In this document: positions 1 to 44,996 of the stretch, piece after piece | Numbering within the stretch: the stretch's first letter is position 1 | Layout: every line of letters begins with the position of its first letter | IMG/VR virus record: IMGVR_UViG_3300036713_000269 | Location: 1-44,996 of that record | From: a virus | Taxonomy: Duplodnaviria; Caudoviricetes | Length of the DNA: 44,996 bases | Strand: one strand, 5' to 3' | The notes under the pieces: generated by a model | Database searches by the model: none | Told to the model about the DNA's origin: nothing | What the model saw: only the letters and a program-made list of their open reading frames with translations | Position numbers and translations under genes: made by a program

Positions 1-150
1 CCGCAGAAGAACCAGCAGGTCGTGCCGCAGCCGAACCTCATCGTGCGGCGCAGCGGCATCTTCAGAGGGAAGCAGGCGTTGCTGTACCTCTACATTCACC
101 CCGACAACAAACTGGGCATCTCCGCGCTGCCCGAGGAGGAAGGCTGGTGA
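1..150 (+). CDS. 3' fragment of hypothetical protein (allele of 43422-43799)
   Basis: Near-identical to 43644-43799; ends EEEGW*. Confidence 0.8.
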   Translation, partial: PQKNQQVVPQPNLIVRRSGIFRGKQALLYLYIHPDNKLGISALPEEEGW

Positions 151-152
151 CC

Positions 153-320
153 ATGAAGCAGCTCCGACGAGACGTTCCGAAGACCCAGATGTGTGACTAC
201 CCCTTCGCCGCGCTCCTGAAGGTGTGCCTCTGCAGGGGCTGCGAAGCGTGGCGACGCGAGGAGTACGCCTGGCACCAGAAGCGGGCTCGCCGCCAGGCGA
301 AGGAGGCTGGTCGTGGCTAG
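153..320 (+). CDS. Small Cys-containing hypothetical protein (55 aa, CLCxGC)
   Basis: ATG just after upstream stop; conserved allele at 43802-43969; below the ORF-track cutoff. Confidence 0.75.
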   Translation: MKQLRRDVPKTQMCDYPFAALLKVCLCRGCEAWRREEYAWHQKRARRQAKEAGRG

Positions 321-570
321 TCGCATCGATCACCACGCCATCCTCGCCCTCGCCATGACCATCCGGGGCTCACTGATCGCCCCGATGATTCCCGAGGACC
401 TCGACTTCGACCCGATCCACCAGGCGGTACGAGACATCGCCTACTGCCACGACCAGGCCACCCTGGGCGACTGGGGCGAGGCCGACAAACGCTGGTACAC
501 CAAGGAGGCCCTCGGGTACCTGATCCATCTCGTGAAGCTGCTCGACGACAATCATCCCATCTACCACTAG
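313..570 (+). CDS. Hypothetical protein (MASRIDHH...)
   Basis: SD AGGAGG before GTG; allele at 44167-44421. Confidence 0.8.
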   Translation: MASRIDHHAILALAMTIRGSLIAPMIPEDLDFDPIHQAVRDIAYCHDQATLGDWGEADKRWYTKEALGYLIHLVKLLDDNHPIYH

Positions 571-579
571 GAGGACGAC

Positions 580-879
580 ATGCTGAAGCCCTACATCTGG
601 GTCATCACCCGCGACTTCATCAACGACGGCGCCGGGAACATCGGAGTCATGGGGCCTGCCGACGGCGACCGCACCATGATGGATCACTGGCGCATCCCCG
701 GCACGCTCTGGCGCCTCTACGACGACGACGGCACGCTCTACTACGAGGGCCTGACCTACGCCACCTACTGGGACGACGAGACCGACTTCGCGCCCCTCGA
801 CAACTTCGGCATGCCGAACGACGGCTGTACCGAAATCCGCTACCTCAACGAGTTCAACAACACATGGGAGACCCTATGA
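580..879 (+). CDS. Conserved phage hypothetical protein (RLYDDDG-LYYEG...PLDNFG-PN-GCT motif)
   Basis: SD AGGAGG; motif I recall from small phage proteins; high GC3 codon usage. Confidence 0.8.
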   Translation: MLKPYIWVITRDFINDGAGNIGVMGPADGDRTMMDHWRIPGTLWRLYDDDGTLYYEGLTYATYWDDETDFAPLDNFGMPNDGCTEIRYLNEFNNTWETL

Positions 880-12544: not shown

Positions 12545-13672
12545 ATGTCTACCCGGATCACCACGGGATCAGGCGAAGCTCGCGGGCCCATTTGGTCTTC
12601 GAGTTTGTGTCTGGAGGCTCAGAACCAGCAGTTCATGCTGAACTTTGTCGGGAAGGGCTCTTCGGCGTGCTTCGTCGAGGAGGACTTCGAGCAGGGCAAG
12701 GGTGACACCGTCAACAAGCGTTTCCGCGCCTCGAACTACACGAGACGCGGTCATGGCGCTACCGACCCCATCGTCGGTTACGGCGGGTCCAACTCCTATC
12801 AGCATGACACCTTCAAGATCGACTACCTCGCGGAATCCCACGAGCTGGACGATCCCGTCAGCCAGCAGCGGATCGACGTCGACCTGTATCAGGACACCCT
12901 GACTGCTCTCTCAGAGTGGTGGGGCCACCGGTACGATGAGGCGATCATCAATCAGCTCGCCGGCTACGGGCCGTGTCATCTGAACGGAGTCACCTCCACC
13001 AGCGTCGACTACAAGCTCTGCGGGTCCAACGCCTGCATCCTCATCGACGACAACCACCACGTCTGGGCGAACGGGGACACCACCACCCACTCGACCGACG
13101 CGAGCGTCGCGGGCGACGATGCCGCGACCATGAATGTCGACGCCATCAACAAGTGCGTCCTCTACGCGATCTCCTCCGACGTCGGAGGCTCCTATCGCAT
13201 CTCTCCGGGACCTGACGGGTTCTACAACCTGGTCATGCACCCTCAGCAGTGGGACGACCTCAGGACCGACCTCGGCCAGCACTCGGTCGCTGACATCCAG
13301 CGAGCGAAGCTGGAGGGCGACGGCAAGCTCAAGAACTCCGCATGGGAGAAGGGCTACCTCGGAGACTGGAACAACGTCCATCTCCACGTCCACGACCAGA
13401 TCCCTCTGGGCGTCGACGCGACCACCATCACCACCAGCGTGGCGAATTGTCGAAGAGCCATTTTCTTCGGGGCGCAGGCTGCGTGGATCGGCTGGGGCGC
13501 TGGCTACGGCGGTGACGACCACCTGGAGTGGAGCGTCATCAACAACGACCACCACCGACAGTCGATCAACGCCCAGACCATCTGGGGCGTGAAGCGATCG
13601 CAGTTCGACAACAGCGACGGTACGACCGAAGCGTACGGGTCTCTCGTACTCTCGACGTACTCGGCCGTATAG
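12545..13672 (+). CDS. Major capsid protein (N4-gp56-like, HK97 fold)
   Basis: GKGDTV, SQQR..DL..L.EWW..YD spine helix, MHPQQWDDLR, G.WNNV.LH and RAIFFGAQA motifs; position. Confidence 0.9.
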   Translation: MSTRITTGSGEARGPIWSSSLCLEAQNQQFMLNFVGKGSSACFVEEDFEQGKGDTVNKRFRASNYTRRGHGATDPIVGYGGSNSYQHDTFKIDYLAESHELDDPVSQQRIDVDLYQDTLTALSEWWGHRYDEAIINQLAGYGPCHLNGVTSTSVDYKLCGSNACILIDDNHHVWANGDTTTHSTDASVAGDDAATMNVDAINKCVLYAISSDVGGSYRISPGPDGFYNLVMHPQQWDDLRTDLGQHSVADIQRAKLEGDGKLKNSAWEKGYLGDWNNVHLHVHDQIPLGVDATTITTSVANCRRAIFFGAQAAWIGWGAGYGGDDHLEWSVINNDHHRQSINAQTIWGVKRSQFDNSDGTTEAYGSLVLSTYSAV

Positions 13673-22500: not shown

Positions 22501-25500
22501 GATCCAGTGGGGGGATGACTTCAAGAAGGGTCGGAAGCCGTACGAGGCCTCGGATGACCCCCGCGACATAGCCAACTTCAAAGAGGTGGAAGCTGCGCGG
22601 AAGGCGATGCAGGAGATTCTCGTCGACCGAGAGTGGGAGGGGGCACCTCCAGTCGACACCGATGGGATCGACAAGGCCTTGGCTCAGATCGAGGCGGGCC
22701 GCAAGAAGGTCGAGGCTCGCCCCAAGGAGCTTGAGAGCGAGCTGGAGGAGCTGCGGCGGCTGTACCAGATAGCGAGCCCCGAGGACCGCCCGGCCATCCT
22801 GGCTGCGTCCGATCAGACGACTCAGATCAGGCAGAACGAGGCTCGGAGGAATGCCCTGAGGGAGCGGTGGAAGAAGCTGCACCCGAAGGACTCGAAGGGC
22901 AAGAGGAAGAGGAAGAGATCTCGCGGTGAGGGGAACCGCCAGCTTCTCCAGCGCCCGGGTATGGTTCGGCAGAAGTGGAGCCCTGAGCCCGCGGAGTTCA
23001 CCTACAAGGAGAAGGACGGTAACGTCGAGGTCTACAACCGCAAGGGCACGCTCGTCAAGACCATCGAGAAGCGCGAGGTCTCCGAAGAGGTCGCCGAGCG
23101 CCCTCGCCCCGTCAACGTTCCAAAGGGGAAGAAGGCGCGGGAGCTGACCCCCGAGAAGCGGAGGCGGCTGGAAGAGCTGCGCGTGATGGTGCCGGAGTAC
23201 GAGGCAATCGTCGAGCGGCTCAAGAAGCAGGGCGCCGAGGAGGACATCACCGGGAGCATCGAGGCTGACCTGGTGGAGTGGAAGAAGGAGCTGGCGGGGC
23301 TGGAGAAGTTCGTTGCCCCCTCGAAGGCTGCCCTCGCCAGGCTCCCCGAGGAGCACACGTACGAGGACCTCGGCGACGGCTTCACCGCAGCCTACAACAG
23401 CAAGGGCAAGCTCGTCAGAGTCACCAAGAAGGGCGAGCCCGAGGCGGCTGCCGAGCCTCAGCAGAAGGCCAAGGCGACCGATGAGTCGCACCGCATCGTG
23501 CCCAGGCTGGACGAGAGGGTCGCCGAAGAGCTGGACGAAGCTCTCGACTCGGACGACGACCTCCCCGCCCCCATGGTCGAGCGTGACCCTGACGCGGTCG
23601 GGATCATGCCCTACAGCCAGCGAGTCGAGGACATCAAGAGGAACATCGATAGCGACGAGTTCGCCTACCAGGCCGGCAAGGTGTTCTCGGGTGACCAGGG
23701 GCGCCCGCACGACACCGAGACCCTCCACGAGGGCAGGGAGGGGATGGTCAACGCGGAGCTGTACAAGGTCGAGGAGAACTCCAAGATCCTCGACAAGGCC
23801 GTTGACGCCTACGTCAAGGCCAAGATGCTGAACTCCTCCCAGTTCCGCGAGCTGCGGGAGAAGATCTACGATCACCTCACAACCGGTGACCTCGCGACAG
23901 CGAAAGCCCTCGGGCTGGACCCGAAGACTCCGAAGACTCTTGCCGTGGTCGAGGCGACCCAGGCGATCCGGGACCACAAGACTCAGATCGAGGAGAAGAT
24001 CATCAACTCCGGAGTCTTCAAGGGCACCTTCCTGGAGGCGGTCAAGGATAACCTCGGCAAGCACATGCAGCGGGTCTACGCTGCACACCACACCAAGGAC
24101 CCCAAGCTGGTGGGGCAGGCCATGGGGAAGAGGTCGTTCCTTCAGCAGCAGCTGGACGACAAGCCGCGCTGGGACGCGATGCGCAAGTGGATGATCGAGA
24201 ACACCGTGCTGGGCGACCGGTGGATGAAGGAGACCAGCGGGAACTACAGCGGCGCAGTCACCCTGGACGCCGTCGCCAACCATAGCCAGTCCATGCACGA
24301 CGAGCTGATCGGGATCGCCGACGTGAGTATGAGAGAGATGCTGGGGACCGCCAGGCCCAACAAGAAGCTGGGCAAGCGGAAGAAGATCTCCCAGTGGAAG
24401 GCGGCGAACGCGGTCGAGCAGCAGGCCCACAAGGGGCTCAAGGAAGGGCAGGTAGCCAAGGCTGGCGACCGACGGGTCCGCAAGGTTAACGGCAAGATCC
24501 AGGTCCTGACGGAGGGCGAGCTGCCGAAGGTGATGCGGGAGTTCTACGGCGAGATCAAGGACCCCACGGTGTCCTACGGCATCGCCGTGAAAGAGGCGAT
24601 GGAGAAGATCGCGACCGCGACGTTCCTCACCGAGATGCTCCTCCAGGACCGGGCCAAGGCCCCGTCCAAGAGACGCATCTTCGAGAAGAAGGCGAACGTC
24701 CCGGAGGGCGTGAACCCGGTCCCGATCAGGGGTGACGCCTCGGTCAACCCGATGGTCCGCAAGAAGGGCGGGCCGATGTACACCGACAAGGACACGGCCG
24801 AGATCATCAAGGACTTCGAGCGTCGCCTGATGATGGGCCAGGACATGAACTCGGCTCGGCAGCTCGCCAAGTGGTACATGACCGGCGCCCGCGTGGTCAA
24901 GGCGAACCTCACCGTCGGCAACCTCCCCACGCAGGCTCGTAACATCGCTGCCTGGCCGTCGATCATGATGTCCCTCGGGATCTACGACCCGAGGCGGATG
25001 GGCGACGCCGTCAAGCTCTTCGCGAAGCTCTCCTCCGGCACGCCGCTCAGTAAGATAGAGATGGACGACCTCAACAAGACTGCCGAGGAGTTCTACGCCC
25101 ACAACCTCGGCAACCACGACATCTTCAGCGTGGACGCTGCCCTGCGGTACCAGGACATGACCGAGCTGAAGATCCCCACCGCGCAGACCAAGTGGCTGTC
25201 GCCGAAGGGCGCGACGGTCAAGCCCATCAAGATGACGTGGGACTTCCTAGTCCGCGCCTACAAGGCCGGTGACGAGGCGCCCAAGCTGATCATCTTCAAG
25301 GTTCTCACCGAGCGGCTGGTGGAGCAGGGGGTCGACAAGAAGGACGCCATGAAGATGGCCGCGTTCGAGGTCCGAAACATGACCCCGAACTACGACAAGG
25401 TCCCCGAGTGGCTGCAGAAGCTCTCCGACGTGTTCCCTCTCGCCCCGTTCGCCCGGTTCCCTGCCGAGGCCTCGTACCGCAACTTCAAGAACAACCTCAA

Positions 25501-26581
25501 GATGCTGCGCCACGAGATGCACCATGCCGAAATCATGGGCCCCATGGGAGCCAAGTGGAAGCAGGCCCCCGATATCAACCTGACTAAGGAACAGTGGAAG
25601 GGCCGAGCTATCCGGCGGATGATCGGAATCACTGTCCACAACGTCGTCGGCGCGTCCGTCCTGGGGGCGATCATCAACAACGGCGTCATTCCACTCTTCA
25701 AGGCGATGGGCTTCGGAGACGACGAGAACGAAGAGACCCGCAAGGCCATGTTCTTCAAGGGGCAGGAGTTCATCCACCGCGTCGGCCCCCCGTGGTACGA
25801 AAATGACCTGCAGGTAATGGTCACGCACGAGCCGGGGAAGAGGGGTATGGCCCTCTCGATCACCAACCTGTTCGCCTCCGCCGACCTCATGAGAACCTTC
25901 GTAGCAGGCATGAAGGCGGTGAAGAACAAGGACACAGACTTCTGGGACGTCGCCAAGGAGCTGATCTCGCCGGTGACTGCGCGAGATCCGATGACCGAGA
26001 CCCTCATCAGCTGGCTGATGATGAACCGCGACCAGTACGGCAAGAAGATCATGATCGAGGGCGCGGGCAAGGCGGAGAACTTCTTCCGGGGTCTCGACTA
26101 CTCCTTCTCCCGGGCTGGCGGCGGGCTCAGGACCATCGACCGCGTGGCTCAGGGCCTCGGCGTCACGCACGGGATCAAGCCCTGGCGCTACGCCGGGCTG
26201 GGGGTCAGGGACCAGAAGAAGTACAACGCTACCCTGGAGGTCGTGGCGCTCCTGGGGGCCAGGTTCTACGAGATCGACTACGGCAAGTCCCTCTTCTTCG
26301 AGAGCCGGGGAGCGTACGAGTCGATCATCGCGACAGGAAAGAAGGACGAAAACGGCGAGAAGGTGTACGATCAGAAGGTGATCGACGCCAACGTCGAACA
26401 ACTCAAGGACCTCGTCGAGAAGCTCACCACCCATGGTGGAATGACAGCGAAGCAGATCAACGAGCAGCTCAACCAGTCCGGACTGAAGTCGGAGTGGAAG
26501 AGCCTGATTACAGGAGGTAGTACTGGTGAGCGTAAACTACGGAGACGTCGTAAAGTCCGTAAGCGACGAAGCCGCCAATGA
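19583..26581 (+). CDS. Giant internal virion/ejection (polyvalent-type) protein with N-terminal thermonuclease (SNase) domain
   Basis: DGDT..RLRVFGIDAPE..DPFGRT..GLAW..GKGLW..PWDFR; 2332 aa; position of the largest ejection protein. Confidence 0.8.
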   Translation: MGWVDPILGPEFDYLDGEEEEELSLWERLFGKKEEDNPDKVFLNPEYDVLDGDTVRTAEERLRVFGIDAPEHGQPFARHSRMLAEELLSGQETRVTPRDVDPFGRTVASLEPGGEDFARRMIEAGLAWDYDRYSKDPEQAAAMEAARAAGKGLWADANPQAPWDFRHPGGAPAGGNPDDVFLSSEWDEIESELDRAGENSAVRALKAGGVGIGAATNYLAGAGARLLEDTTFEAPINALGRLFGERDLTTASAEGREERGAELTAVAAGIRPENTDIRAEFEEGDWGGTARAAGLTFLESLPNMAATAGMALIPAAWAPAAAATTGMVLEGGSHYGEGIESGAADNLAFGKQQAAFNAFAYGAVAGLLEAGGVRGMQAAMDSVAKKYGEGAYKMLAAKMPGIMKAALSEGATEASQAGAQMVFEAGESRGPETVADVLWRGFIEGGLGAAGGGAIGTIGAAANFQTTAAKLAEENEVTGAHLAFEGAAAPIVEPSKASQRIPYQAPPGPEVSPEDIMGSFPVDERQQKLIGPYDRLPSRIEGPMNETLIPEWPDDEASRAIDYMPTSEQMREERGWFGPDDQTWEGPGSEEIAELELELEDLRKRYRMAPTEPIREDILAKAAEIKAQIEAIEADPLGDMVIAGESEEDAKVERIGPEAGPVKWSPVRSNKAHDEAFRKKFGEPEDVSRKKSASRKAFEDFAHSSEENLQILDNFIERDEREPGPVVWKQVHEEPVEKPVHEKPDQDWRVRMREIDRDLDRVNDEDMDDGRTPPEGLENIGGDIDRAYVLERERLNLIHGRVREIAQRLRVLKERGQNKLKLAEPEVHAAHLEAEIKREQAKLALAKPGKKKKIARRLKHLKARLVEAKRASYADLKLKLEQLRSEARDGSVRRREGVTVDEIKAEAEAVKAEMAEIKKAGLSAKADAKLKKTKTPAARAQDEAVLEEMRLEYADLRNEMRELLEEDPEYFEKIQWGDDFKKGRKPYEASDDPRDIANFKEVEAARKAMQEILVDREWEGAPPVDTDGIDKALAQIEAGRKKVEARPKELESELEELRRLYQIASPEDRPAILAASDQTTQIRQNEARRNALRERWKKLHPKDSKGKRKRKRSRGEGNRQLLQRPGMVRQKWSPEPAEFTYKEKDGNVEVYNRKGTLVKTIEKREVSEEVAERPRPVNVPKGKKARELTPEKRRRLEELRVMVPEYEAIVERLKKQGAEEDITGSIEADLVEWKKELAGLEKFVAPSKAALARLPEEHTYEDLGDGFTAAYNSKGKLVRVTKKGEPEAAAEPQQKAKATDESHRIVPRLDERVAEELDEALDSDDDLPAPMVERDPDAVGIMPYSQRVEDIKRNIDSDEFAYQAGKVFSGDQGRPHDTETLHEGREGMVNAELYKVEENSKILDKAVDAYVKAKMLNSSQFRELREKIYDHLTTGDLATAKALGLDPKTPKTLAVVEATQAIRDHKTQIEEKIINSGVFKGTFLEAVKDNLGKHMQRVYAAHHTKDPKLVGQAMGKRSFLQQQLDDKPRWDAMRKWMIENTVLGDRWMKETSGNYSGAVTLDAVANHSQSMHDELIGIADVSMREMLGTARPNKKLGKRKKISQWKAANAVEQQAHKGLKEGQVAKAGDRRVRKVNGKIQVLTEGELPKVMREFYGEIKDPTVSYGIAVKEAMEKIATATFLTEMLLQDRAKAPSKRRIFEKKANVPEGVNPVPIRGDASVNPMVRKKGGPMYTDKDTAEIIKDFERRLMMGQDMNSARQLAKWYMTGARVVKANLTVGNLPTQARNIAAWPSIMMSLGIYDPRRMGDAVKLFAKLSSGTPLSKIEMDDLNKTAEEFYAHNLGNHDIFSVDAALRYQDMTELKIPTAQTKWLSPKGATVKPIKMTWDFLVRAYKAGDEAPKLIIFKVLTERLVEQGVDKKDAMKMAAFEVRNMTPNYDKVPEWLQKLSDVFPLAPFARFPAEASYRNFKNNLKMLRHEMHHAEIMGPMGAKWKQAPDINLTKEQWKGRAIRRMIGITVHNVVGASVLGAIINNGVIPLFKAMGFGDDENEETRKAMFFKGQEFIHRVGPPWYENDLQVMVTHEPGKRGMALSITNLFASADLMRTFVAGMKAVKNKDTDFWDVAKELISPVTARDPMTETLISWLMMNRDQYGKKIMIEGAGKAENFFRGLDYSFSRAGGGLRTIDRVAQGLGVTHGIKPWRYAGLGVRDQKKYNATLEVVALLGARFYEIDYGKSLFFESRGAYESIIATGKKDENGEKVYDQKVIDANVEQLKDLVEKLTTHGGMTAKQINEQLNQSGLKSEWKSLITGGSTGERKLRRRRKVRKRRSRQ

Positions 26582-30471: not shown

Positions 30472-31030
30472 GACTCAACTACTCCCCGCCGACATCTTCT
30501 TCACCCGTGGGACAGGGTGGGTCTCCCGACGCATCCGCAAGCGCAGCCGCAGCCGTAACGAAGCTCCGAGCGAGGTCAACCACTGCGGTGTCGTCCTTAC
30601 CGAGGGCACGTTCGAGAGCGCCGAGGTGATCGAGGCAGCCGGCTGGAAGGTCCGGGTGGCGCATCTGAGCGATCACTACAGCCCAGATCAGGTAACGATC
30701 ATGCGACCTCACGGTATCAGCGGTGAACAGGTGGCGAGCGTACTCGCCGCAGCGCGTGCATATGAGGGCCGGCGCTATGGCTTTACGAAAATCCCACTCC
30801 ACCTGGCTGATGCTATCTTCTTTCGTCACCACTACGTCCTCCGTCGGTTGGCATTCCTACCGTGGGTGATATGCTCTGAACTCGTGACACTGATCTTCGA
30901 CATCATCGGCTGGTGCTTCGGGGTTCGCCCCAAGGAAGCTCAGCCGGACGACATCTGGGACTACTGCGTCAGCCACCCCGAGAAGTATCGGAAGGTCTCT
31001 CTCGCGCCTCCGGACGGCGAGTCTCCCTGA
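30470..31030 (+). CDS. Permuted papain-like NlpC/P60 (YiiX/YaeF-type) enzyme
   Basis: DIFF..NHCG..EA..GRRY..ICSELV..PDDI, with His before Cys. Confidence 0.8.
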   Translation: MTQLLPADIFFTRGTGWVSRRIRKRSRSRNEAPSEVNHCGVVLTEGTFESAEVIEAAGWKVRVAHLSDHYSPDQVTIMRPHGISGEQVASVLAAARAYEGRRYGFTKIPLHLADAIFFRHHYVLRRLAFLPWVICSELVTLIFDIIGWCFGVRPKEAQPDDIWDYCVSHPEKYRKVSLAPPDGESP

Positions 31031-31035
31031 GGTCG

Positions 31036-31206
31036 TCAGTCATCCTCCAGTTCTTCATAGTCCTCGTCACACGCTTCCTCGTGCTCGTTGATCCAGCGGT
31101 CAGGGTCGACGGCGCACTTCCCAACACTGTACTCGCCGCACACTGACATCCGGGTGTGGCCATGCCGGTACCACCGACACTCCCCGCAGGTCTTGGTGTC
31201 AGTCAT
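31036..31206 (-). CDS. Small Cys-rich protein, family A copy 3 (KTCGECRW)
   Basis: Paralog of 31446-31640 and 32056-32256. Confidence 0.7.
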   Translation of the reverse strand: MTDTKTCGECRWYRHGHTRMSVCGEYSVGKCAVDPDRWINEHEEACDEDYEELEDD

Positions 31207-31453
31207 CGGTGTACCCTCCCTCTCGTACTCTCCATACCCATCCCGACCCTGCCGTGGGGCGATGGCAGACCCCCTCGCACCCACCCTCCACCGCCACCTC
31301 GCAGAGGGCGCGGATCAACTCCGGCAAGTCAGTGTAGGGCAGTTCCGGGTGGTCGCCGTCGTACTCGTACTCCTCGCCGTGAATGGCGAAGGTTTGGCTC
31401 ATGAGGTCGATAGCCCATCTGTCATGCGTCTTCGGGCTTATGATCCTACTCAT
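31199..31453 (-). CDS. Small protein, family B copy 2 (RALCEVAVE)
   Basis: 29-bp identity with 31935-31963. Confidence 0.7.
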   Translation of the reverse strand: MSRIISPKTHDRWAIDLMSQTFAIHGEEYEYDGDHPELPYTDLPELIRALCEVAVEGGCEGVCHRPTAGSGWVWRVREGGYTDD

Positions 31454-31640
31454 CACCCCTCCTCACCCAGCACGCGCAGTCCGTGGCGTCGGTGTCGAAG
31501 CGGAGATGTCGCGTCAGGATATTCTCAGCCCACTGAGGAATGGCGAGCTGTATCGCCGTACATGTACCGTATCCTTTGTGCGGTGGCTCCCAGTCCTTGA
31601 ACCACTCGCACTCCCCACAGGTCTTGGCTGGCTCAGTCAT
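31446..31640 (-). CDS. Small Cys-rich protein, family A copy 2
   Basis: KTCGECEW...DTDATDCACW. Confidence 0.7.
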   Translation of the reverse strand: MTEPAKTCGECEWFKDWEPPHKGYGTCTAIQLAIPQWAENILTRHLRFDTDATDCACWVRRGDE

Positions 31641-31848
31641 CGTCGGTGTCCTCCCAATTGCTCAGTCGCGCATACTCGGCGCACTCCAGACAGGCCGCTT
31701 CCCCGTCCACTGGTGCGATAGTCCCGTCCGCATCGCGCAGCAGTTCGCCGCACAGGTAGCAGCTCACCGTGATGTGCTTGTCGATGATCGGCGCCAGGCA
31801 GCCGCAACACGCACATGCGCTGGTGTGCTCCGCCTCACCGCGCTTCAT
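31633..31848 (-). CDS. Small Zn-finger-like protein
   Basis: CACC, CYLC and CLEC motifs; coupled to neighbours. Confidence 0.65.
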   Translation of the reverse strand: MKRGEAEHTSACACCGCLAPIIDKHITVSCYLCGELLRDADGTIAPVDGEAACLECAEYARLSNWEDTDDD

Positions 31849-32063
31849 CGCAGTCTTCCCTCCATGTTGATCCAGCACCCCTCGTCCTGCTCGCCGTGAC
31901 CAAGCTGCCGCCTCTCGACATGCAGCACCCCACTCTCCACCGCCACCTCGCAGAGGGCGCGGAGGGCGTGGATGAGAATGTCGTCGTCGGCGCATTTCAG
32001 AACATCTAGAGCTATCAAGCAGTTCTCTCTGTGTCTCCGGGTGGGGTTGCTCACCTCACTCAT
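31845..32063 (-). CDS. Small protein, family B copy 1
   Basis: LRALCEVAVESG. Confidence 0.65.
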   Translation of the reverse strand: MSEVSNPTRRHRENCLIALDVLKCADDDILIHALRALCEVAVESGVLHVERRQLGHGEQDEGCWINMEGRLR

Positions 32064-32256
32064 CGTCGCGCTCCCTCCAGCAGTCGCAGTCGGTGGCGTC
32101 GGTGTCGGCCTCGATCTGCTGATTGCGAGCTGGTGGCAAGTACATGAACCACATCGGTTTCTTCTTCGGCACCCTGAGTCGCCAAGTGCAATCGTCTCTA
32201 TGCCAAATAATGCTCTCACCCCACCACCGACACGTCCCGCAGGTCTTCTCACTCAT
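32056..32256 (-). CDS. Small Cys-rich protein, family A copy 1
   Basis: KTCGTCRW...DTDATDCDCW; ATGA coupling to the helicase stop. Confidence 0.7.
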   Translation of the reverse strand: MSEKTCGTCRWWGESIIWHRDDCTWRLRVPKKKPMWFMYLPPARNQQIEADTDATDCDCWRERDDE

Positions 32257-33623
32257 CGCAGCCCTCCCTTCAGTATGTCTTCGATCACGTCCTTGCGATC
32301 GCGCAGGGCCTGGTAGACCTGGCGGTCCACCGTGCCCTCGGCGACCAGGTGGTAGTAGGCCACCGGGCGCTCCTGCCCCGGCCGTGACAGCCTGGCCAGG
32401 GCCTGCTCGTACTTCGCCAGGCTCCACCCCAGCGAGAAGAACACCGCGTAGCAGGCCCTCGTCAGGTCGATCCCCTCGCTCCCGCTCTGCACCTGGACGG
32501 CCAGCACCTGGGCCTCACCCTCCTGCCAGCTTCCCAGCTCCTGGTACGATCCCGACAGCTCAGCCGAGTCGATCTTGAGCTTGGCGCACACCTCGTGGAC
32601 CGCCTTGAGATCGGTCTTGTAGAGGCAGAAGACCACCACCGGCTCGCTCCCCAGGTCAGTCAGCAGGTCAGCGAGCAGGGCGTCCTTGCCCTTGTGGACC
32701 CGGACCAGCTCGTCCTTGTCGTCGGGCTTCAGCCAGCCACCGGTGAGCTGCTGCAGGCGGAGTAGCCGGGTCAGGGCGTTGGTCACCGTGACCAGCTCAC
32801 CACTCTCGGTCCAGGCGACGTAGTCATCCTTCAGCCCCTGGTACGCCTCCCGCGCCTTGGGCTCCAGCTCGAACGTTCGCTCCTCGTGCATCACGGGCGG
32901 GAGGTCGAGGACGTCCCGGTGGACCCGGTGCGTGATGCTGAAGAACTTGTCCCTGAACTCGGCCTTGTTCTGGTAGCTGATCACCATCGGGAAGTCCACG
33001 TAGGGATTCATGATGGCGTACCGAGCGCGAAACAGGGCGGCGCTCTTCCCGAAGATGCTGGGGTCCAGGAACCGGAACTCGGCGTAGGCGTCGAGGGGCG
33101 AGTGGGCCAGCGGCGTACCCGAGAGCCCCAGCTTCAGCGGCACCAGCTTGCCCATCGCTGTCATGAACCAGCTCGCCTTGGACGAGGGTGACTTGATCCG
33201 GTGGATCTCGTCGGCGACGATGAGGTCAATGGTGCGGCCCCACTTCTTGAAGGCCTTGCCTAGCGCCCCACGCCAGACCGACTCGTAGTTGACCACGATG
33301 ACAACGGGAGTCGGCGGCGGAACCTTCAGGAGGGGCTCGACGGCCGCCACCTTCTTGGCCATGGTCGCCTGGGTCAGCTCGACGACGTACCAGTGGTCGG
33401 GGGCGTGGGTCTCGACCTGCTTGCGCCAGGCGGGGATCACCGACTTGGGGCAGACGATCAGGATGACTCTGCACTTCCAGCCCACTGCCAGGTGGATGGC
33501 GGTGGCGCTCTTGCCGACGCCCATGCCGCCATAGTAGAGGTTGGCGTAGCGGTCCCTCATAGCGTGGTACGCCTCGACCTGGTGGGGCCAGGGCTTGGTC
33601 TTGGTCGGGAAGGGGAGGCTCAA
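32253..33623 (-). CDS. SNF2-family (SF2) helicase
   Basis: GMGVGKS, DEIH, LSGTP, GSEGIDL and QALARLSRPGQ motifs; TTG start at 33623 inferred from TTGA coupling. Confidence 0.9.
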   Translation of the reverse strand: MSLPFPTKTKPWPHQVEAYHAMRDRYANLYYGGMGVGKSATAIHLAVGWKCRVILIVCPKSVIPAWRKQVETHAPDHWYVVELTQATMAKKVAAVEPLLKVPPPTPVVIVVNYESVWRGALGKAFKKWGRTIDLIVADEIHRIKSPSSKASWFMTAMGKLVPLKLGLSGTPLAHSPLDAYAEFRFLDPSIFGKSAALFRARYAIMNPYVDFPMVISYQNKAEFRDKFFSITHRVHRDVLDLPPVMHEERTFELEPKAREAYQGLKDDYVAWTESGELVTVTNALTRLLRLQQLTGGWLKPDDKDELVRVHKGKDALLADLLTDLGSEPVVVFCLYKTDLKAVHEVCAKLKIDSAELSGSYQELGSWQEGEAQVLAVQVQSGSEGIDLTRACYAVFFSLGWSLAKYEQALARLSRPGQERPVAYYHLVAEGTVDRQVYQALRDRKDVIEDILKGGLR

Positions 33624-34762: not shown

Positions 34763-35449
34763 ATGTCGGATCTCGTCAAAGTAGGCAGTCAGTTCCCCGT
34801 CCTCGACCCCGAGCGCGTGGCCATCATGGCCAGCCGGTTCTCCGAGACCCTCGGCGGCACCGGACTCACGCCGAGAGACCTCCCCCTCGTCAAGATCCCC
34901 GCCGGCGGCGGGAAGTACTGGGAGGTGGACGGCCACGATGCGTCCGAGGTACTGCGCGGTGTGGTCGTCCACATCAAGGACACTCGCACCCTCTACAAGG
35001 AGGCATTCTCGGGAGGCAACGAGCCGCCCGACTGCGCCTCGGAGGACGGCATCTTCGGGGTTGGCGACCCCGGGGGCTCCTGCCTCAGCTGTCCCTACAA
35101 CTGCTACAACAGCGACTGCAAGCCGTACACCCTGGTGTTCATCGTGCTGGAGGGGGACCGTCTGCCCGTCCGGGTCAGGCTCCCGCGCACCAGCCTCAAG
35201 CACCTCCGCAAGTACCGGCTCAGTCTCCTCAACAAGGACCAGCTGCCCCGCGAGGTGATCACCCTCATCTCCATCATCAAGGCCAAGAGTCAGGGCGGGA
35301 TCGAATACTCTGAGGCCAAGCTCGTCGCCGAGTGTCCGCTGGAAGCGGACGAGGCGGCGGCTCTGCAGACGTACGCGGAAGCCATCAAGCCCATGTTCGC
35401 CGCCGAGGCGACGCCGCCAGCGGTCCCTGAAGACGAGCTTGGCTTCTAG
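34763..35449 (+). CDS. Putative ssDNA-binding/annealing protein
   Basis: LPLVKIP, PPDCASEDG, CxxCP motifs; acidic tail ending EDELGF. Confidence 0.6.
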   Translation: MSDLVKVGSQFPVLDPERVAIMASRFSETLGGTGLTPRDLPLVKIPAGGGKYWEVDGHDASEVLRGVVVHIKDTRTLYKEAFSGGNEPPDCASEDGIFGVGDPGGSCLSCPYNCYNSDCKPYTLVFIVLEGDRLPVRVRLPRTSLKHLRKYRLSLLNKDQLPREVITLISIIKAKSQGGIEYSEAKLVAECPLEADEAAALQTYAEAIKPMFAAEATPPAVPEDELGF

Positions 35450-35937: not shown

Positions 35938-36101
35938 AGTTCGAGATCGACATCCCCCTGTACGTCCAGGGGATGCAGCGCAAGATGGAGAAGCAGAAGC
36001 GGCAGCTGAAGTACCTCAACGAACGCCTCCACCGCCAGTCGCTGCAGCTGGACCATGCGGAGGCCCTCCTTCGGCGACTCGGCTTCCGGCGTGACTACTG
36101 A
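35934..36101 (+). CDS. Small coiled-coil protein
   Basis: GTGA coupling. Confidence 0.55.
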   Translation: MKFEIDIPLYVQGMQRKMEKQKRQLKYLNERLHRQSLQLDHAEALLRRLGFRRDY

Positions 36102-37632
36102 GCACCACATCGCCGGGCCTCCCGGCACCGGGAAGACCACCTACGTGGCCGCCCGGTGCCGGGAAGAGGTCAAGAGGTACGGCGCCACCGGCGTCCTCGT
36201 CACCTCCCTCACCAAGGCCGCCGCGTCCGAGGCTGGCGGCAGGGAGACGGGGTTGCTCGACACTCAGATCGGCACCCTCCACGCCCACGCCTTCCGCTCC
36301 CTGCCCGGCGCCGCCATCGTGAAGAAGGAGCACTACGCGGACTGGAACGCGGCGAACCCCAACCTCACCCTCACCGGCGGCAAGGACACCATCAACCTGG
36401 GACGGGAGGCTCGCGCTCGGGGCGACGACGTCCGGGAGACCGCCAACCTGCACCGGCACCGGATGGTCCCCAGTGACGTCTGGCCCGACCACGTGCGCCG
36501 GTTCCACGAGAGGTGGCAGGACTTCAAGGCGGAGCGCGAGGTGCTCGGCTTCACAGATCTGATCGAACTGGCGAACACATCCGTTCCACTCGCCCCAGGA
36601 GACCCTGATGTCATCATCGCCGACGAAGCCCAAGACCTCTCCAAGCTTGAGTGCAGTCTTCTTAGAAGATGGGCCTCAAGCTGTAAGGCCCTCATCCTCG
36701 TTGGAGACCCTGATCAGGCTCTGTACGGATGGAGAGGATCTGACCCGAACATACTCTCTGGAGCTGAAGTCCCGGAACGCCTGGCACGATCTTGGCGAGT
36801 TCCGTCTCGAATACACGCCGAGGCCCAGCGACTGATCCGGCGGTGCCGGTTCCGGGAGGACATCGACTACATCCCCGTCCGCGAGGGTGGCGAGGTACTG
36901 CGGGGAGGCACCTACCGGAACAACCGCTGGCTCCTGCCCCACATCGAGGCCGCCATCGAGGGAGAGCGGAGCATCATGCTGCTCACTACCACGGAGCACA
37001 TGCTGGGGCCGATCATCAAGCTCCTCCGGCAGGAGGGCATCCCCTACCACAACCCGTTCAACACGAGGTGGAACCCGCTCTCCCAGGGCGTGACCGTGGA
37101 GAAGCTCCTCATTCTCGCCAAGCCCATGACCCAGTGGACGATCGGAGACCTCAAGGCTGTCGCCACCATCGTGAGGTCCGGGCCCGTCCTGCACCGCCAC
37201 GCGAAGACCAGGCTCAAGAGCATCAGCGAGGACCACGACCACGTCCTCGCTCGCGGCGAGGCGCTGCTCACCACTATGCTGACTGACGAGGCGCTCGACA
37301 ACATGCACGACCTGGACTGGGTGGTCAGCCACATGCTCAGCGACGCCCAGAAGTCGATCAAGTACCCCCTCGCCATCTACCGGAGACGGGGCCGAGAGGC
37401 CCTCACCTCGCAGCCACGGGTCATCGTCGGGACCATCCACTCAGTCAAGGGGGGCGAGGCTGACGACGTGGTGGTGTTCCCCGACATCTCCAGGGCGGCG
37501 TACGACCAGAGTCTGAAACGATCCTGGGACGGTGCCGACGCCCTGTACCGGACGTTCTACGTGGCATTCACCCGAGCCCGCGAGAGGCTCATCATCGGGA
37601 GGGCGGGAACCAACATGAAGGTGTCACTGTGA
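36091..37632 (+). CDS. UvrD/Rep-family (SF1) helicase
   Basis: GPPGTGKTT, TLHA, DEAQD, VGDPDQALYGWRG, TIHSVKGGE and YVAFTRAR motifs. Confidence 0.92.
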   Translation: MTTEHHIAGPPGTGKTTYVAARCREEVKRYGATGVLVTSLTKAAASEAGGRETGLLDTQIGTLHAHAFRSLPGAAIVKKEHYADWNAANPNLTLTGGKDTINLGREARARGDDVRETANLHRHRMVPSDVWPDHVRRFHERWQDFKAEREVLGFTDLIELANTSVPLAPGDPDVIIADEAQDLSKLECSLLRRWASSCKALILVGDPDQALYGWRGSDPNILSGAEVPERLARSWRVPSRIHAEAQRLIRRCRFREDIDYIPVREGGEVLRGGTYRNNRWLLPHIEAAIEGERSIMLLTTTEHMLGPIIKLLRQEGIPYHNPFNTRWNPLSQGVTVEKLLILAKPMTQWTIGDLKAVATIVRSGPVLHRHAKTRLKSISEDHDHVLARGEALLTTMLTDEALDNMHDLDWVVSHMLSDAQKSIKYPLAIYRRRGREALTSQPRVIVGTIHSVKGGEADDVVVFPDISRAAYDQSLKRSWDGADALYRTFYVAFTRARERLIIGRAGTNMKVSL

Positions 37633-37856
37633 TCACGCGCCGCAGCGTCTTTCAGGGGGCAGCAGCAACCATGGCAGCAGCCATGCTGCCGTTCAAACGG
37701 CTACTGCCCCTCAAGCAGCCGGTAACGTTCAACCATGTGAGCAACGAGATCAACACCGTCCAGGGGAGGCAGCTGGCCAAGCTGGCCGAGTTCTGGGGAG
37801 AGAAATACGACAAGGCGATTCTCAAGGCATGGGCAGGGGGGGACTTCGATGAGTGA
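37629..37856 (+). CDS. Small protein with Tat-like N-terminus and capsid-spine-helix-like C-terminus
   Basis: TRRSVFQ plus hydrophobic stretch; 11/22 identity to this phage's capsid residues LTALSEWWGHRYDEAIINQLAG. Confidence 0.65.
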   Translation: MITRRSVFQGAAATMAAAMLPFKRLLPLKQPVTFNHVSNEINTVQGRQLAKLAEFWGEKYDKAILKAWAGGDFDE

Positions 37857-38133
37857 GTCTGCGCTCCGCCGGCGGGTGAGGATGAGATGCGACGAGCTGG
37901 GATACTGGGCGATACCGTACCCCGGCTCGTCGATGGGGATCACCGGGTTCCCCGACCTCATCATCCTCAAGCGTGGCCAGGTCATCTTCCTGGAGCTGAA
38001 GGACCTCGGCAAGAAGCCTCGGCCGATCCAGATGGCGATACTGTCCAAGCTCCGCGCCCTCGGCTTCACGGCCGAGTGGGCTGACAACTACGACGACGCG
38101 ATGGAGGTGATCGGTGTGGAAGAAGCCGAGTAA
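37849..38133 (+). CDS. VRR-NUC (PD-(D/E)xK) nuclease
   Basis: ESAL..GFPDL..FLELK..RPIQ. Confidence 0.88.
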   Translation: MSESALRRRVRMRCDELGYWAIPYPGSSMGITGFPDLIILKRGQVIFLELKDLGKKPRPIQMAILSKLRALGFTAEWADNYDDAMEVIGVEEAE

Positions 38134-38338: not shown

Positions 38339-39951
38339 CGACTGACTTCCTCGCCGCGGTCTTCCCCTCCATCCCCTCGGGGATGTTCATGCACCTGTGG
38401 ACGCATCCGGACAAGGTATCAACATGGGTGCCGCTGAGTATCGCCGTCCTCAGCCACGAAGTGATCGAAACCCAGAACATCTACGTCGGGGTGGGTCTCA
38501 GCCCCGAAGATTACGGCCCGAAGAAGCGATGCAGCGCCTCTCGGGTCGCTGCCATGCCTGGCCTCGTCGCCGACCTCGACATCAAGGACGGAGCGTTTCC
38601 GAACTTGAACGCAATCCAGCGGTTCATCGGTGAACTCCCAATGGCGCCGACGATCACAGTAGCGAGCGGTGGCGGGGTCCAGGCATGGTGGCTCTTTCGT
38701 GAACTCTGGATCTTCGACTCCGATGAAGAACGCGAAGAATGCGCGACACTCTCCAGGGGATGGGGCGGGTTCCTGAGTCGCAGAGCAAGGGCCGAGGGGG
38801 TGACCCTCGACAGCGTGTGGGACCTCGCCAGGCTCATGAGAGTGCCCGGTACCCTCAACAACAAGTACTCGCCGCCGAGGCCGGTGAGCATCCTCTCCAC
38901 TGACGGGCCGCGCTACAACCCTGGAGACTTCAGGGAGTGGGCCGTAATCACCCCGCCTCAAGCCACCGTCGAAGTGGATGCCACCGGCCTCGTGTGGCGG
39001 GACGATGCGGACGTGCCGTCCGCTCGTCTCAACGCCATGCTCCAGAACTCGCCCCAGTTCCGAGCGTCGTGGGAGCACCGGCGCAAGAACTTCACGTCGT
39101 GCTCAGAGTACGACATGTCCCTCGCCACCCTGGCCGCGTTCGCCGGGTGGGAAGAGCAGGCCATCCTCAACCTCCTCATCGCCCACCGCAACAAGTACGG
39201 CGAGAAGCTCCACCTCGACAACAAGAAGAAGTACACCTGCACCATCGGGAACGCCCTCGCTGCAGCCAAGGCCAAGCGCAACGAGAACGCCATCTCCGAC
39301 ACTCTGGAGGCCCTGTCATCCTCCCCCACCAAGGTGCCGGAGATCGACAACGACATCAGACGGCAGTTCCTCGACATCATCGCCGACCGCACCGGGTGCG
39401 CAGTCGATCGGCTCGTGGTCTACTCGTCCCACGAGGAGAACCAGTACGAGGCCGTTATCGGAGGGGTGGAGGTGAGAGTGGGCTCGGACAAGGAGCTACT
39501 CTCCTGGACCCGCTGGCGAGAGATCGCCCTGCACCACGGTGCGATCAGGAGCAAGCCCACCCCCACCGAGTGGCAGGACAGCATCCGAGGCTTCCAGGCT
39601 GTGATGGAGGTGACCCAGGTGACCGAAGCCAACGCCACCGAGGCGCTGGCCGAGCACATCCGGTCCCTCTGCTCTGAGAGTGCCACGGTCCACCAGTCCC
39701 TGGCCGGGGCAGACATGGCCAGCGCCATCGACGGAGGTCAGCCCATGGTCATCGGCGACCGGCTCTACTTCAAGAGGAGCGAGCTGGTCCGCCACATCAG
39801 CGTGGAGCGCGAGAGGTGGGGGCGCCTTCAGCTCTCCAAGGTGCTGCGCCAGATCGAGTTCGAGGGCATCCAGATCTCAGCCAGAAACGGAAAGAGCGTG
39901 TCGAAGGGTCGGTACCTCTGCGGACCCGCCGCTATCCTCGAAGATGCTTGA
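38335..39951 (+). CDS. RepB/AEP-like DNA primase with uncharacterised C-terminal domain
   Basis: ADLD, SGGGVQAWW and DLARLMRVPGTLN motifs; SEYD primase-C-like helix; TTGA-coupled start. Confidence 0.8.
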   Translation: MTTDFLAAVFPSIPSGMFMHLWTHPDKVSTWVPLSIAVLSHEVIETQNIYVGVGLSPEDYGPKKRCSASRVAAMPGLVADLDIKDGAFPNLNAIQRFIGELPMAPTITVASGGGVQAWWLFRELWIFDSDEEREECATLSRGWGGFLSRRARAEGVTLDSVWDLARLMRVPGTLNNKYSPPRPVSILSTDGPRYNPGDFREWAVITPPQATVEVDATGLVWRDDADVPSARLNAMLQNSPQFRASWEHRRKNFTSCSEYDMSLATLAAFAGWEEQAILNLLIAHRNKYGEKLHLDNKKKYTCTIGNALAAAKAKRNENAISDTLEALSSSPTKVPEIDNDIRRQFLDIIADRTGCAVDRLVVYSSHEENQYEAVIGGVEVRVGSDKELLSWTRWREIALHHGAIRSKPTPTEWQDSIRGFQAVMEVTQVTEANATEALAEHIRSLCSESATVHQSLAGADMASAIDGGQPMVIGDRLYFKRSELVRHISVERERWGRLQLSKVLRQIEFEGIQISARNGKSVSKGRYLCGPAAILEDA

Positions 39952-40322: not shown

Positions 40323-40565
40323 ATGGCTATCACAACCAAAACCACGCTCCAGAGAATGCAGCGAGTCTGGAAGCTGAAGATCGAGAAGCACGACGGCGAG
40401 AAGATCAAGGCCGAGTCGTGCAACTCCCCGCACGTCAGGCAGTCGGTCGAGGGGCCGATCCTCGGCGTGCAGTGGTGGGAGAAGGACGGCAACCGGGAGA
40501 GGTCTGTCCTCGGGGGCATCGTCAATCTCGACATCACGATGAACGAGACCGTTCTCGATGAGTAG
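40323..40565 (+). CDS. Hypothetical protein
   Basis: SD AAGGAGGT. Confidence 0.75.
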   Translation: MAITTKTTLQRMQRVWKLKIEKHDGEKIKAESCNSPHVRQSVEGPILGVQWWEKDGNRERSVLGGIVNLDITMNETVLDE

Positions 40566-43421: not shown

Positions 43422-43799
43422 ATGCTCATCAAGCGCAAGGCGCACCCCGAACTCTTCGCTCGCCTCCAGGAGCTCTTCCCCGCTGGCTACCGCAAGCACG
43501 CCGTCGCCGTTTTCGAGACGGCCGACCCGGTGTCCCTCACCGGACGCTCCTGGGACGAGGGCTCCCGCTCCGACTGGAGCGCCTGTGACCTGAACGGACG
43601 CTCGGTCTCCTTCGGGCACGTGGACCCGCCGCAGTTCGGCGGACCGAAGAAGAACCAGCAAGTCGTGCCGCAGCCGAACCTCATCGTGCGGCGCGGCGGC
43701 ATCTTCAGAGGGAAGCAGGCGTTGCTGTTCCTCTACATGCACCCCGACACCCGCAACAAACTGGGCATCTCCGCGCTGCCCGAGGAGGAAGGCTGGTGA
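43422..43799 (+). CDS. Hypothetical protein
   Basis: SD AGGAGG; WDEGSRS..G.F.GK motif. Confidence 0.8.
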   Translation: MLIKRKAHPELFARLQELFPAGYRKHAVAVFETADPVSLTGRSWDEGSRSDWSACDLNGRSVSFGHVDPPQFGGPKKNQQVVPQPNLIVRRGGIFRGKQALLFLYMHPDTRNKLGISALPEEEGW

Positions 43800-43801
43800 C
43801 C

Positions 43802-43969
43802 ATGAAGCAGCTCCGACGAGACGTTCCGAAGACCCAGATGTGTGACCACCCCTTCGCCGCGCTCCTGAAGGTGTGCCTCTGCGAGGGCTGCGAGGCGTGG
43901 CGACGCGAGGAGTACGCCTGGTACCAGAAGCGGGCTCGCCGCCAGGCGAAGGAGGCTGGTCGTGGCTAG
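43802..43969 (+). CDS. Allele of 153-320
   Basis: Near identity. Confidence 0.75.
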   Translation: MKQLRRDVPKTQMCDHPFAALLKVCLCEGCEAWRREEYAWYQKRARRQAKEAGRG

Positions 43970-44174
43970 TCGCGACGCCTACCAGCGCGGCGCAGACCAC
44001 GCCCGGCGGCTGCTGAAGCTGTGGCAGACACCCGGCGGACTCGCCAAACGCCCCGAAGCGATCAGCGAGGCCGGTTTGATCGACCCGGTAACGTGGCAGT
44101 CCATCGACGAAGATTTGCTGCTGTGGGCGCGAGGGTTCAACAACACCCTGCTAGAGGAGGACGGTCGTGGCTAG
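43962..44174 (+). CDS. Accessory hypothetical protein (MASRDAYQ...), absent from the left copy
   Basis: Bounded by 16-bp direct repeats. Confidence 0.75.
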   Translation: MASRDAYQRGADHARRLLKLWQTPGGLAKRPEAISEAGLIDPVTWQSIDEDLLLWARGFNNTLLEEDGRG

Positions 44175-44421
44175 TCGCATCGACCACCACGCCATCCTCG
44201 CCCTCGCCATGACCATCCGGGGCTCACTGATCGCCCCGATGATTCCCATGGGCCTCGACTTCGACCCGATCCACCAGGCGGTCCGAGACATCGCCCACTG
44301 CCACGACCAGGCCACCCTGGGCAGCGGCGAGGCCGACCAGCGCTGGTGCACCAAGGAGGCCCTCGGGTACCTGATCCACCTCGTGAAGCTGCTCGACGAC
44401 AATCATTCCATCTACCACTAG
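44167..44421 (+). CDS. Allele of 313-570
   Basis: Near identity. Confidence 0.8.
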   Translation: MASRIDHHAILALAMTIRGSLIAPMIPMGLDFDPIHQAVRDIAHCHDQATLGSGEADQRWCTKEALGYLIHLVKLLDDNHSIYH

Positions 44422-44430
44422 GAGGACGAC

Positions 44431-44895
44431 ATGCACTACCACGCCGAATGCTGGTTCCCGTTCGACCCGACCGACGACCTGGAGGAGGCCGTCCACGCTC
44501 TCATGCGGCCGTTCGACGAGAACGGCCCCGAGGCCCAAGCTCGCATCTGGGACTGGTACCAGATCGGTGGCCGCTGGAGAGGTCACCACGACCCCTCGTA
44601 CGACATCAACTCCGACCCGACGTGCAGCGGTGTCTGGCCCACCCAGTTCAAGCTACACGAGGCGGACTGCATGCGTGTCATCGAATGCCCCGACGACCTC
44701 ACCGCCCACACCCTGTTCATCTACGACGACGGGGAGTGGAACGACCACACGGCCTACCAGAAGCAGGTCTGGGACGGCGCCTCGGAGCAGTTCCTCGACG
44801 GCCCGTTCGACGGGAACGTTCAGAACAAGCTCGAAGAGCTGGGCCTGGAGCCCGAGTGCGACGGCTGGCTCGTCACCGTGGACTACCACTCATGA
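44431..44895 (+). CDS. Accessory protein (WDWYQIGGRW..VDYHS), absent from the left copy
   Basis: SD AGGAGG; WDWY.IGGRW and C-terminal VDYH motif typical of a phage family I recall. Confidence 0.8.
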   Translation: MHYHAECWFPFDPTDDLEEAVHALMRPFDENGPEAQARIWDWYQIGGRWRGHHDPSYDINSDPTCSGVWPTQFKLHEADCMRVIECPDDLTAHTLFIYDDGEWNDHTAYQKQVWDGASEQFLDGPFDGNVQNKLEELGLEPECDGWLVTVDYHS

Positions 44896-44996
44896 GACCC
44901 TACATCTGGGTCATCACCCGCGACTTCATCAACGACGGCGCCGGGAACATCGGAGTCATGGGGCCTGCCGACGGCGACCGCACCATGATGGATCAC
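44892..44996 (+). CDS. 5' part of allele of 580-879
   Basis: ATGA coupling; identical to 589-687 from 44898. Confidence 0.8.
   Translation, partial: MRPYIWVITRDFINDGAGNIGVMGPADGDRTMMDH

Follow-up and report, generated by a model that had tools for sequence, protein, structure and literature searches.

A phage mini-gene joining a Tat-like leader to a copy of its own lineage's capsid helix, and a class of similarly built viral genes carrying virion-protein pieces

The window, meaning the whole stretch of DNA analysed here, is an entire virus record of 44,996 bases from sediment, and it encodes a terminase, a P22-like portal, a scaffold and a PF13252/N4-gp56-like major capsid protein. The nearest terminase (33%) was found in a Desulfatiglandales MAG and is too distant to assign a host. 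The rightward replication cluster of the record houses an ORF of 75 amino acids between the genes for a UvrD-like helicase and a VRR-NUC nuclease, the position given for it in an earlier note made from the sequence, and it overlaps both neighbours, by GTGA at its start and by 8 nt at its stop. The features discussed below are as follows.

36055..37632, plus strand: UvrD-like helicase, upstream neighbour (family profile match); its stop overlaps the mini-gene start (GTGA)
37629..37856, plus strand: 75-aa mini-gene with Tat-like leader, linker and capsid-helix copy (ORF, GTG start)
37629..37691, plus strand: residues 1-21, twin-arginine-type leader (T-R-R-S-V-F followed by 17 uncharged residues; PF10518 21.2 bits)
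37671..37673, plus strand: internal ATG (Met15), from which a leaderless form of 61 aa may start (Shine-Dalgarno-like pairing; Logan call)
37773..37838, plus strand: copy of the capsid P-domain (spine) helix, ORF residues 49-70 (BLASTP, shuffles, lineage comparison)
37849..38133, plus strand: VRR-NUC nuclease, downstream neighbour (family profile match); its ATG overlaps the mini-gene stop by 8 nt
12545..13672, plus strand: major capsid protein, N4-gp56-like, source of the copy (PF13252/phrog_334; PDB 8h89 chain A, E 2.5e-10)
12899..12964, plus strand: source helix, capsid residues 119-140 (BLASTP; corresponding to about 120-141 of the solved relative, within P-domain residues 92-140)
13448..13483, plus strand: capsid motif RRAIFFGAQA (residues 302-313), resembling the mini-gene leader, possibly by coincidence (motif profile)

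The product of the ORF begins (M)ITRRSVFQGAAATMAAAML, and the ribosome-binding site of the VRR-NUC gene falls within its last codons. Shine-Dalgarno-like pairing at the GTG is weak (-3.9 kcal/mol), and translation from this codon would lean on translational coupling, while Met15 shows pairing of -9.4 kcal/mol at a long spacing. Gene calls differ between the two starts, JGI/IMG giving 75 aa and Logan (P0003) giving 61 aa from Met15, and initiation at the latter could remove the leader. The frame has a GC3 of 0.79 and a CAI of 0.60, the latter being the highest among the six frames and low for the genome (10th percentile of 288 windows). The ORF is covered without differences by contigs from two runs of one sample, which are not independent, and none of the RNA datasets is listed as holding it.

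Several other features of the record were observed. The ends of the window (1-687 versus 43644-44996) repeat in three blocks (95%, 94% and 100%) with insertions between them, which is consistent either with a circular genome whose overlapping ends differ or with a two-strain assembly, the record being classed as linear and 79% complete. A second related phage from the same sample shares the primase region (38541-39260) at 85-95% identity and higher depth, and diverges past 39260. The structural module ends with a protein of 2,332 aa (19583-26581), whose N-terminus resembles a staphylococcal-nuclease domain by its motif; the protein is probably an injected internal protein. On the minus strand, small paralogous genes, rich in Cys and alike at their starts and ends, are clustered at 31036-32427. 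An 80-aa ORF at 40323-40565 resembles the 228-aa protein encoded at 34763-35449 over 23 residues (pairwise E 2e-4), which may be chance.

The leader of the mini-gene resembles twin-arginine signal peptides in part. The Tat consensus is S/T-R-R-x-F-L-K, with Phe two residues beyond the arginine pair, but the mini-gene has Val there and Phe one place later. RRSVF, at residues 4-8, satisfies the TatP motif RR.[FGAVML][LITMVF], as given in the accessible text of PMC6085387. Against PF10518 the leader scores 21.2 bits, below the curated Pfam cut-off of 22.7. No other gene of the record matches PF10518 at E<=1, and NCBIfam profiles gave no match to the mini-gene at E<=1. The h-region comprises 17 uncharged residues, and its best 15-residue hydropathy of 1.33 is lower than that of four of five controls, which places it at the weak end. 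The only AxA (residues 16-18) lies within the h-region, with no clear site after it, and the leader may stay uncleaved. Like Tat signal peptides and small Tat substrates, the mini-gene thus has an N-terminal arginine pair, a fit to TatP, an uncharged stretch and basic residues after it; unlike them, it falls under the Pfam cut-off and lacks both the consensus Phe and a clear AxA past the h-region. In addition, Tat substrates carry a folded cofactor enzyme, whereas the passenger here is a phage-encoded, capsid-derived peptide of about 55 residues. The Tat-like signal of the earlier note therefore holds in its motif and its uncharged stretch and falls short in profile score and consensus Phe, and the leader is best described from these comparisons as Tat-like but atypical.

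The remainder of the mini-gene points to the phage's own capsid. ORF residues 49-70 align without gaps to capsid residues 119-140, with 11 of 22 identical and 16 of 22 positive positions (pairwise BLASTP E 2e-6), which reproduces the match first described in the earlier note. The ORF and the capsid give a Smith-Waterman score of 64; with either of them shuffled, 0 of 20,000 trials came up to it (highest values 52 and 54), and the alignment is thus significant by the shuffling check proposed in that note. The score was likewise reached in 0 of 2,000 shuffles against 28 concatenated window proteins (maximum 59). Over all 99 long six-frame ORFs the match has a genome-wide E of 1.5e-4, and the number of effective tests is smaller because the ORF is the only PF10518 match of the record. 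Among the 250 small ORFs of the record, six outscore the mini-gene, and by inspection these are terminal-repeat copies, local repeats and small paralogues. Separately, a screen of 110 ORFs returned a shadow ORF (30913-31146) with a higher raw Smith-Waterman z, which was rejected as compositional (composition-adjusted BLASTP E 0.24). Neither PF13252 nor phrog_334 matched the ORF or its cargo, and a capsid profile built without the two cognate capsids did not report the helix in the ORF; a profile of the own and the nearest capsid gave 15.4 bits over ORF residues 30-70, and its score for the whole protein was matched in 0 of 5,000 shuffles.

DNA identity between the copy and the capsid is 13/22 at first, 17/22 at second and 7/22 at third codon positions, a pattern that is not significant by itself (p 0.067), the segment having been chosen for protein likeness. 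The copy appears to be old. The residues that it keeps cluster on one helix face (8/10 versus 3/12, p 0.015, for an arc chosen post hoc), and its amphipathicity exceeds that of the source helix (moment 1.07 versus 0.67). The donor gene lies 25 kb away and is not among the neighbours of the mini-gene. The linker shows no significant likeness to the linkers of the class described below (41/300 shuffles).

The lineage of the copy was examined with 46 PF13252 capsids (the own capsid, 13 relatives and 32 of 37 loci) in the same alignment columns. The copy gives its highest score, 65, with P0007, the nearest relative; the own capsid follows with 64, and none of the remaining 44 exceeds 40. The rank of the own capsid is partly circular, and P0007, which is 71% identical to the own capsid and matches the copy at 12/22 positions, serves as a partial independent check, as it was not used in picking the segment. 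Moreover, G127 and Y130 occur in 2 of the 46 capsids, and the mini-gene has both. By these comparisons the copy is specific to the lineage of the phage's own capsid. The near-invariant residues W125, R129, N136, Q137 and L138 read F, K, K, A and W in the copy, and among the helix invariants W125, R129, N136, Q137 and G140 it keeps G140 alone. The mini-gene therefore shares with N4-gp56-like capsids (PF13252, TIGR04387, phrog_334) a P-domain helix bearing the lineage-specific G127 and Y130, but it differs from them in holding only 22 of 375 residues, with family invariants altered, and an HK97 fold is impossible for it.

The source segment aligns with residues 120-141 of PDB 8h89, which we take, in view of the matching length of 369 aa, to be gp2 of Ralstonia phage GP4. 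The label spine helix belongs to general HK97 usage and is not a term of PMC9698820. According to the accessible text of that paper, residues 92-140 of the GP4 capsid protein form a helical P-domain, and residues 113-130 lie at inter-capsomer contacts (PMC9698820). The source helix overlaps this contact segment, and its position within the helical P-domain of a relative of known structure bears out the earlier note's identification of the segment as a backbone helix.

Orthologues of the mini-gene were searched for by word index, by HMMER over 1.84 billion representatives, and in viral contigs and cultured phages, and none but the mini-gene itself was found. Mixed ORF/capsid alignments run against viral, metagenome and genome contigs gave no homologue either, the single match (L011) being a capsid gene, and a leader-plus-helix profile found none among 80 candidates. 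Two further HMMER matches, to repeat proteins of 3,965 and 122 aa, were judged to be chance, and all 18 matches to a DNA pattern for leader and helix were noise. In the ESM Atlas the ORF fell to unnamed clusters at 0.90-0.91 with low recognition, and its residues 24-75 returned nothing. The mini-gene is absent directly downstream of UvrD in 4/4 full-length UvrD relatives, in one of which (L004) UvrD overlaps a gene that is VRR-NUC-like by inspection with no mini-gene between them; since such relatives lack a gene of this kind downstream, it is evidently optional. A PF10518 search of 39 records, mostly fragments (9 UvrD relatives, L011 and 29 of the 37 capsid loci), gave one positive, whose cargo had no family match.

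Genes of the same design were found in other viral records. Two leader patterns applied to IMG/VR yielded 9 loci and, from at least 121 matches, the 80 that were listed, together 85 distinct ORFs; filtering for a length of 50-160 aa, a closed frame and a hydrophobic h-region left 58. Cargos were searched against their own records, with more of the record added for 27/58 and within 10 kb on each side for the others. At E<=1e-3 the cargo matches a protein of its own record in 9/58 mini-genes versus 0/174 cross-record controls, and at E<=0.01 in 12/58 versus 3/174 (Fisher p about 2e-6, inflated by the kinship of L092, L114 and L115); for the other 46 no protein of the own record matched at E<=0.01, many of their records having been searched only in part. 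The 12 sources are three major capsid proteins, four tape measures, one portal, one virion structural protein and three unannotated proteins, so that 9/9 annotated sources are virion proteins, as a raw count and not an enrichment over background. The present mini-gene has the size, arginine-pair leader and own-record virion cargo of the class (50-160 aa), and its E of 1.5e-4 lies within the range of the nine best members (1e-7 to 4e-4). Most members, too, score below the PF10518 cut-off, direct family scans of the 58 ORFs detected little, and in the two members from PF13252 phages the cargo does not match the capsid.

The cargos derive from unrelated proteins and from differing parts of them. 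In L092/L115 the leader is identical at 17/17 residues with 10 synonymous changes, while the cargo shows a pN of 0.28 and a pS of 0.64; the leader is conserved above the cargo in the L092/L114/L115 pairs and not in L084/L102. Related members, cargo included, are under purifying selection. One member comes from a cultured phage, namely phiLM21_p049 (L242:5001-5312) of Sinorhizobium phage phiLM21, annotated as hypothetical, which joins a Tat leader to a C-terminal piece of the tape measure. Other arrangements were also seen: a twin-arginine-type leader in frame with a 524-aa protein that is a terminase large subunit by inspection (L145:10001-11572), three tandem PF10518-positive genes in one phage (L073:824-1580; records G040 and G044), and Tat mini-genes whose cargos match the SU10 adaptor (L143:5688-6089; PF24175, E 4e-4) and the major capsid GP7 (L125:9784-10020; PF20911, E 0.023). 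The open literature searched, with subscription journals and supplements outside the search, gave no account of mini-genes with a Tat leader and a virion fragment, nor any phage known to pair the Tat pathway with pieces of its own shell, portal or tail proteins, and the class is apparently undescribed. With other members carrying tape-measure or portal pieces, the design is wider than the capsid mimicry proposed in the earlier note.

Taken together, the 75-aa ORF is very probably a real accessory gene, which unites a Tat-type leader with an anciently copied P-domain helix from the capsid of its own lineage, and one of a class with interchangeable virion pieces. As to its action, we tentatively favour a membrane-tethered bait for unassembled capsid subunits. 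The mini-gene would be translated by coupling with the replication operon, ahead of the late genes, and the leader would dock the product at the inner membrane or at TatBC. The helix, which retains its hydrophobic face, might then bait unassembled capsid subunits of the own or a related phage, and the captured subunits would be held at the membrane or might leave as Tat hitchhikers. Such capture could keep early or foreign capsid protein both from assembly and from cytoplasmic sensors. A role for the cargo is favoured because the annotated sources are virion proteins only, the donor gene is distant and the cargo is constrained, and the lineage specificity of the mini-gene is further evidence that the cargo follows the capsid lineage of its phage. 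The satellite interference proteins PICI Ccm, SaPI CpmB and PLE TcaP and the prophage tail-assembly blockers may share its action, in that they mimic or bind a virion protein while particles are assembled, but they are cytoplasmic, leaderless and either full-length paralogues or dedicated folds, whereas the mini-gene is a short fragment of an own protein. Co-export is supported in principle, because Tat is able to export complexes in which one partner alone bears the signal, according to the accessible text of PMC6085387.

Almost as likely as the capsid bait is that the leader is the working part, occupying or tuning the Tat translocase or anchoring a small envelope protein, for example in superinfection exclusion, while the helix is a passenger, tolerated as an amphipathic helix. 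The constancy of the leader across the class, as in L092/L115, the variety of proteins and protein parts from which the cargos come, and the loss of capsid invariants together with a gain of amphipathicity in the present copy would all be expected of such a gene. However, a passenger of no consequence would not readily account for annotated sources that are without exception virion proteins, for a cargo taken here from the distant capsid gene and not from the adjacent replication genes, or for the constraint still acting on class cargo, and the present leader is itself a weak Tat match.

It is unlikely, given an open reading frame that overlaps its neighbours at both ends and has the best codon usage of the six frames, that the mini-gene is a non-adaptive or decaying chimera, in which a mobile leader cassette took up capsid DNA long ago and the copy has been drifting since. 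The orphan status of the mini-gene in all searches, its absence right after UvrD in the four full-length relatives, the atypical leader and the low CAI are consistent with decay, but 11-12 of 22 residues have been retained though third positions are saturated, and other members of the class show selection.

Less probable again is that the peptide acts in the cytoplasm, started at Met15 or left unexported, as a decoy for a host sensor of a short capsid motif. We know of no sensor that reads the capsid P-domain helix. The stronger pairing at Met15, the database call that starts there and the early timing implied by the replication-operon position would fit a decoy, and short motifs are what Lit and CapRel read in capsid proteins, but Avs7, Avs8 and Avs10 attach to the A-domain interface through its broad shape (accessible text of 10.64898/2026.01.04.697583). 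In all of these systems the capsid protein is the trigger and the sensor belongs to the host, whereas the mini-gene is phage-encoded. A genuine motif mimic could also trigger a sensor instead of blocking it, five near-invariant capsid residues are altered in the copy, and a decoy would leave the class-wide conserved export leader unexplained. In the accessible text of the review PMC13728456 no phage capsid-fragment decoy is described. Of the overall reading in the earlier note, the fusion of a Tat-like leader to a copy of the own capsid helix stands, while its sensor-decoy idea is weakened, because Tat export would take the peptide out of the cytoplasm and because Avs7, Avs8 and Avs10 read the A-domain fold broadly and not a short helix.

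It is improbable that the whole ORF is a two-piece permuted derivative of the capsid, with the leader taken from the capsid strand RRA[IV]FxGAQA as a Tat lookalike or a co-opted signal. On a profile of this motif from 42 capsids the leader scores 7.4 bits, a value equalled in 8/5,000 shuffles, and class leaders score at most 2.8 (51/58 scored), a control that is biased, as those leaders had been chosen by their RRxFL register; 7/12 leader residues match the motif of the nearest capsid, and such an origin would account for the RRxxF register. However, PF10518 scores the leader higher (21.2 bits), Tat leaders naturally show an arginine pair followed by Gly and Ala, the leader sits exactly at the N-terminus, and DNA identity is just 15-16/36. 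Least probable, and very much so, is a chance likeness. In its favour, the match is short, is missed by family profiles and is exceeded in raw z by one shadow ORF, and an E of 1.5e-4 across 250 small ORFs corresponds to about 0.04 expected chance matches. Against it, the shadow ORF did not survive composition-adjusted BLASTP, the mini-gene is the sole Tat-type gene of the record and genes of this type contain pieces of their own virion proteins much more often than controls do, and the nearest capsid, which had no part in the choice of segment, matches better.

More speculatively than the bait reading of the single gene, tailed phages may share a modular system of genes whose conserved twin-arginine leader is supplied anew with short pieces of the phage's own virion (capsid, portal or tape measure). 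The products would be baits, tethered to the membrane or to Tat, that catch the corresponding structural protein and retain or co-export it, so as to conceal capsid patterns from host immunity or to hinder related phages; the present mini-gene would be the capsid-helix version, matched to its own lineage. If the cargo is functional, a general strategy of counter-defence or phage competition would lie concealed among proteins annotated as hypothetical; if the leader alone matters, the class would represent a new means by which phages act on the protein export of the host, together with a visible route of gene birth. The occurrence of phiLM21_p049 in a cultured phage renders the question of cargo versus leader testable.
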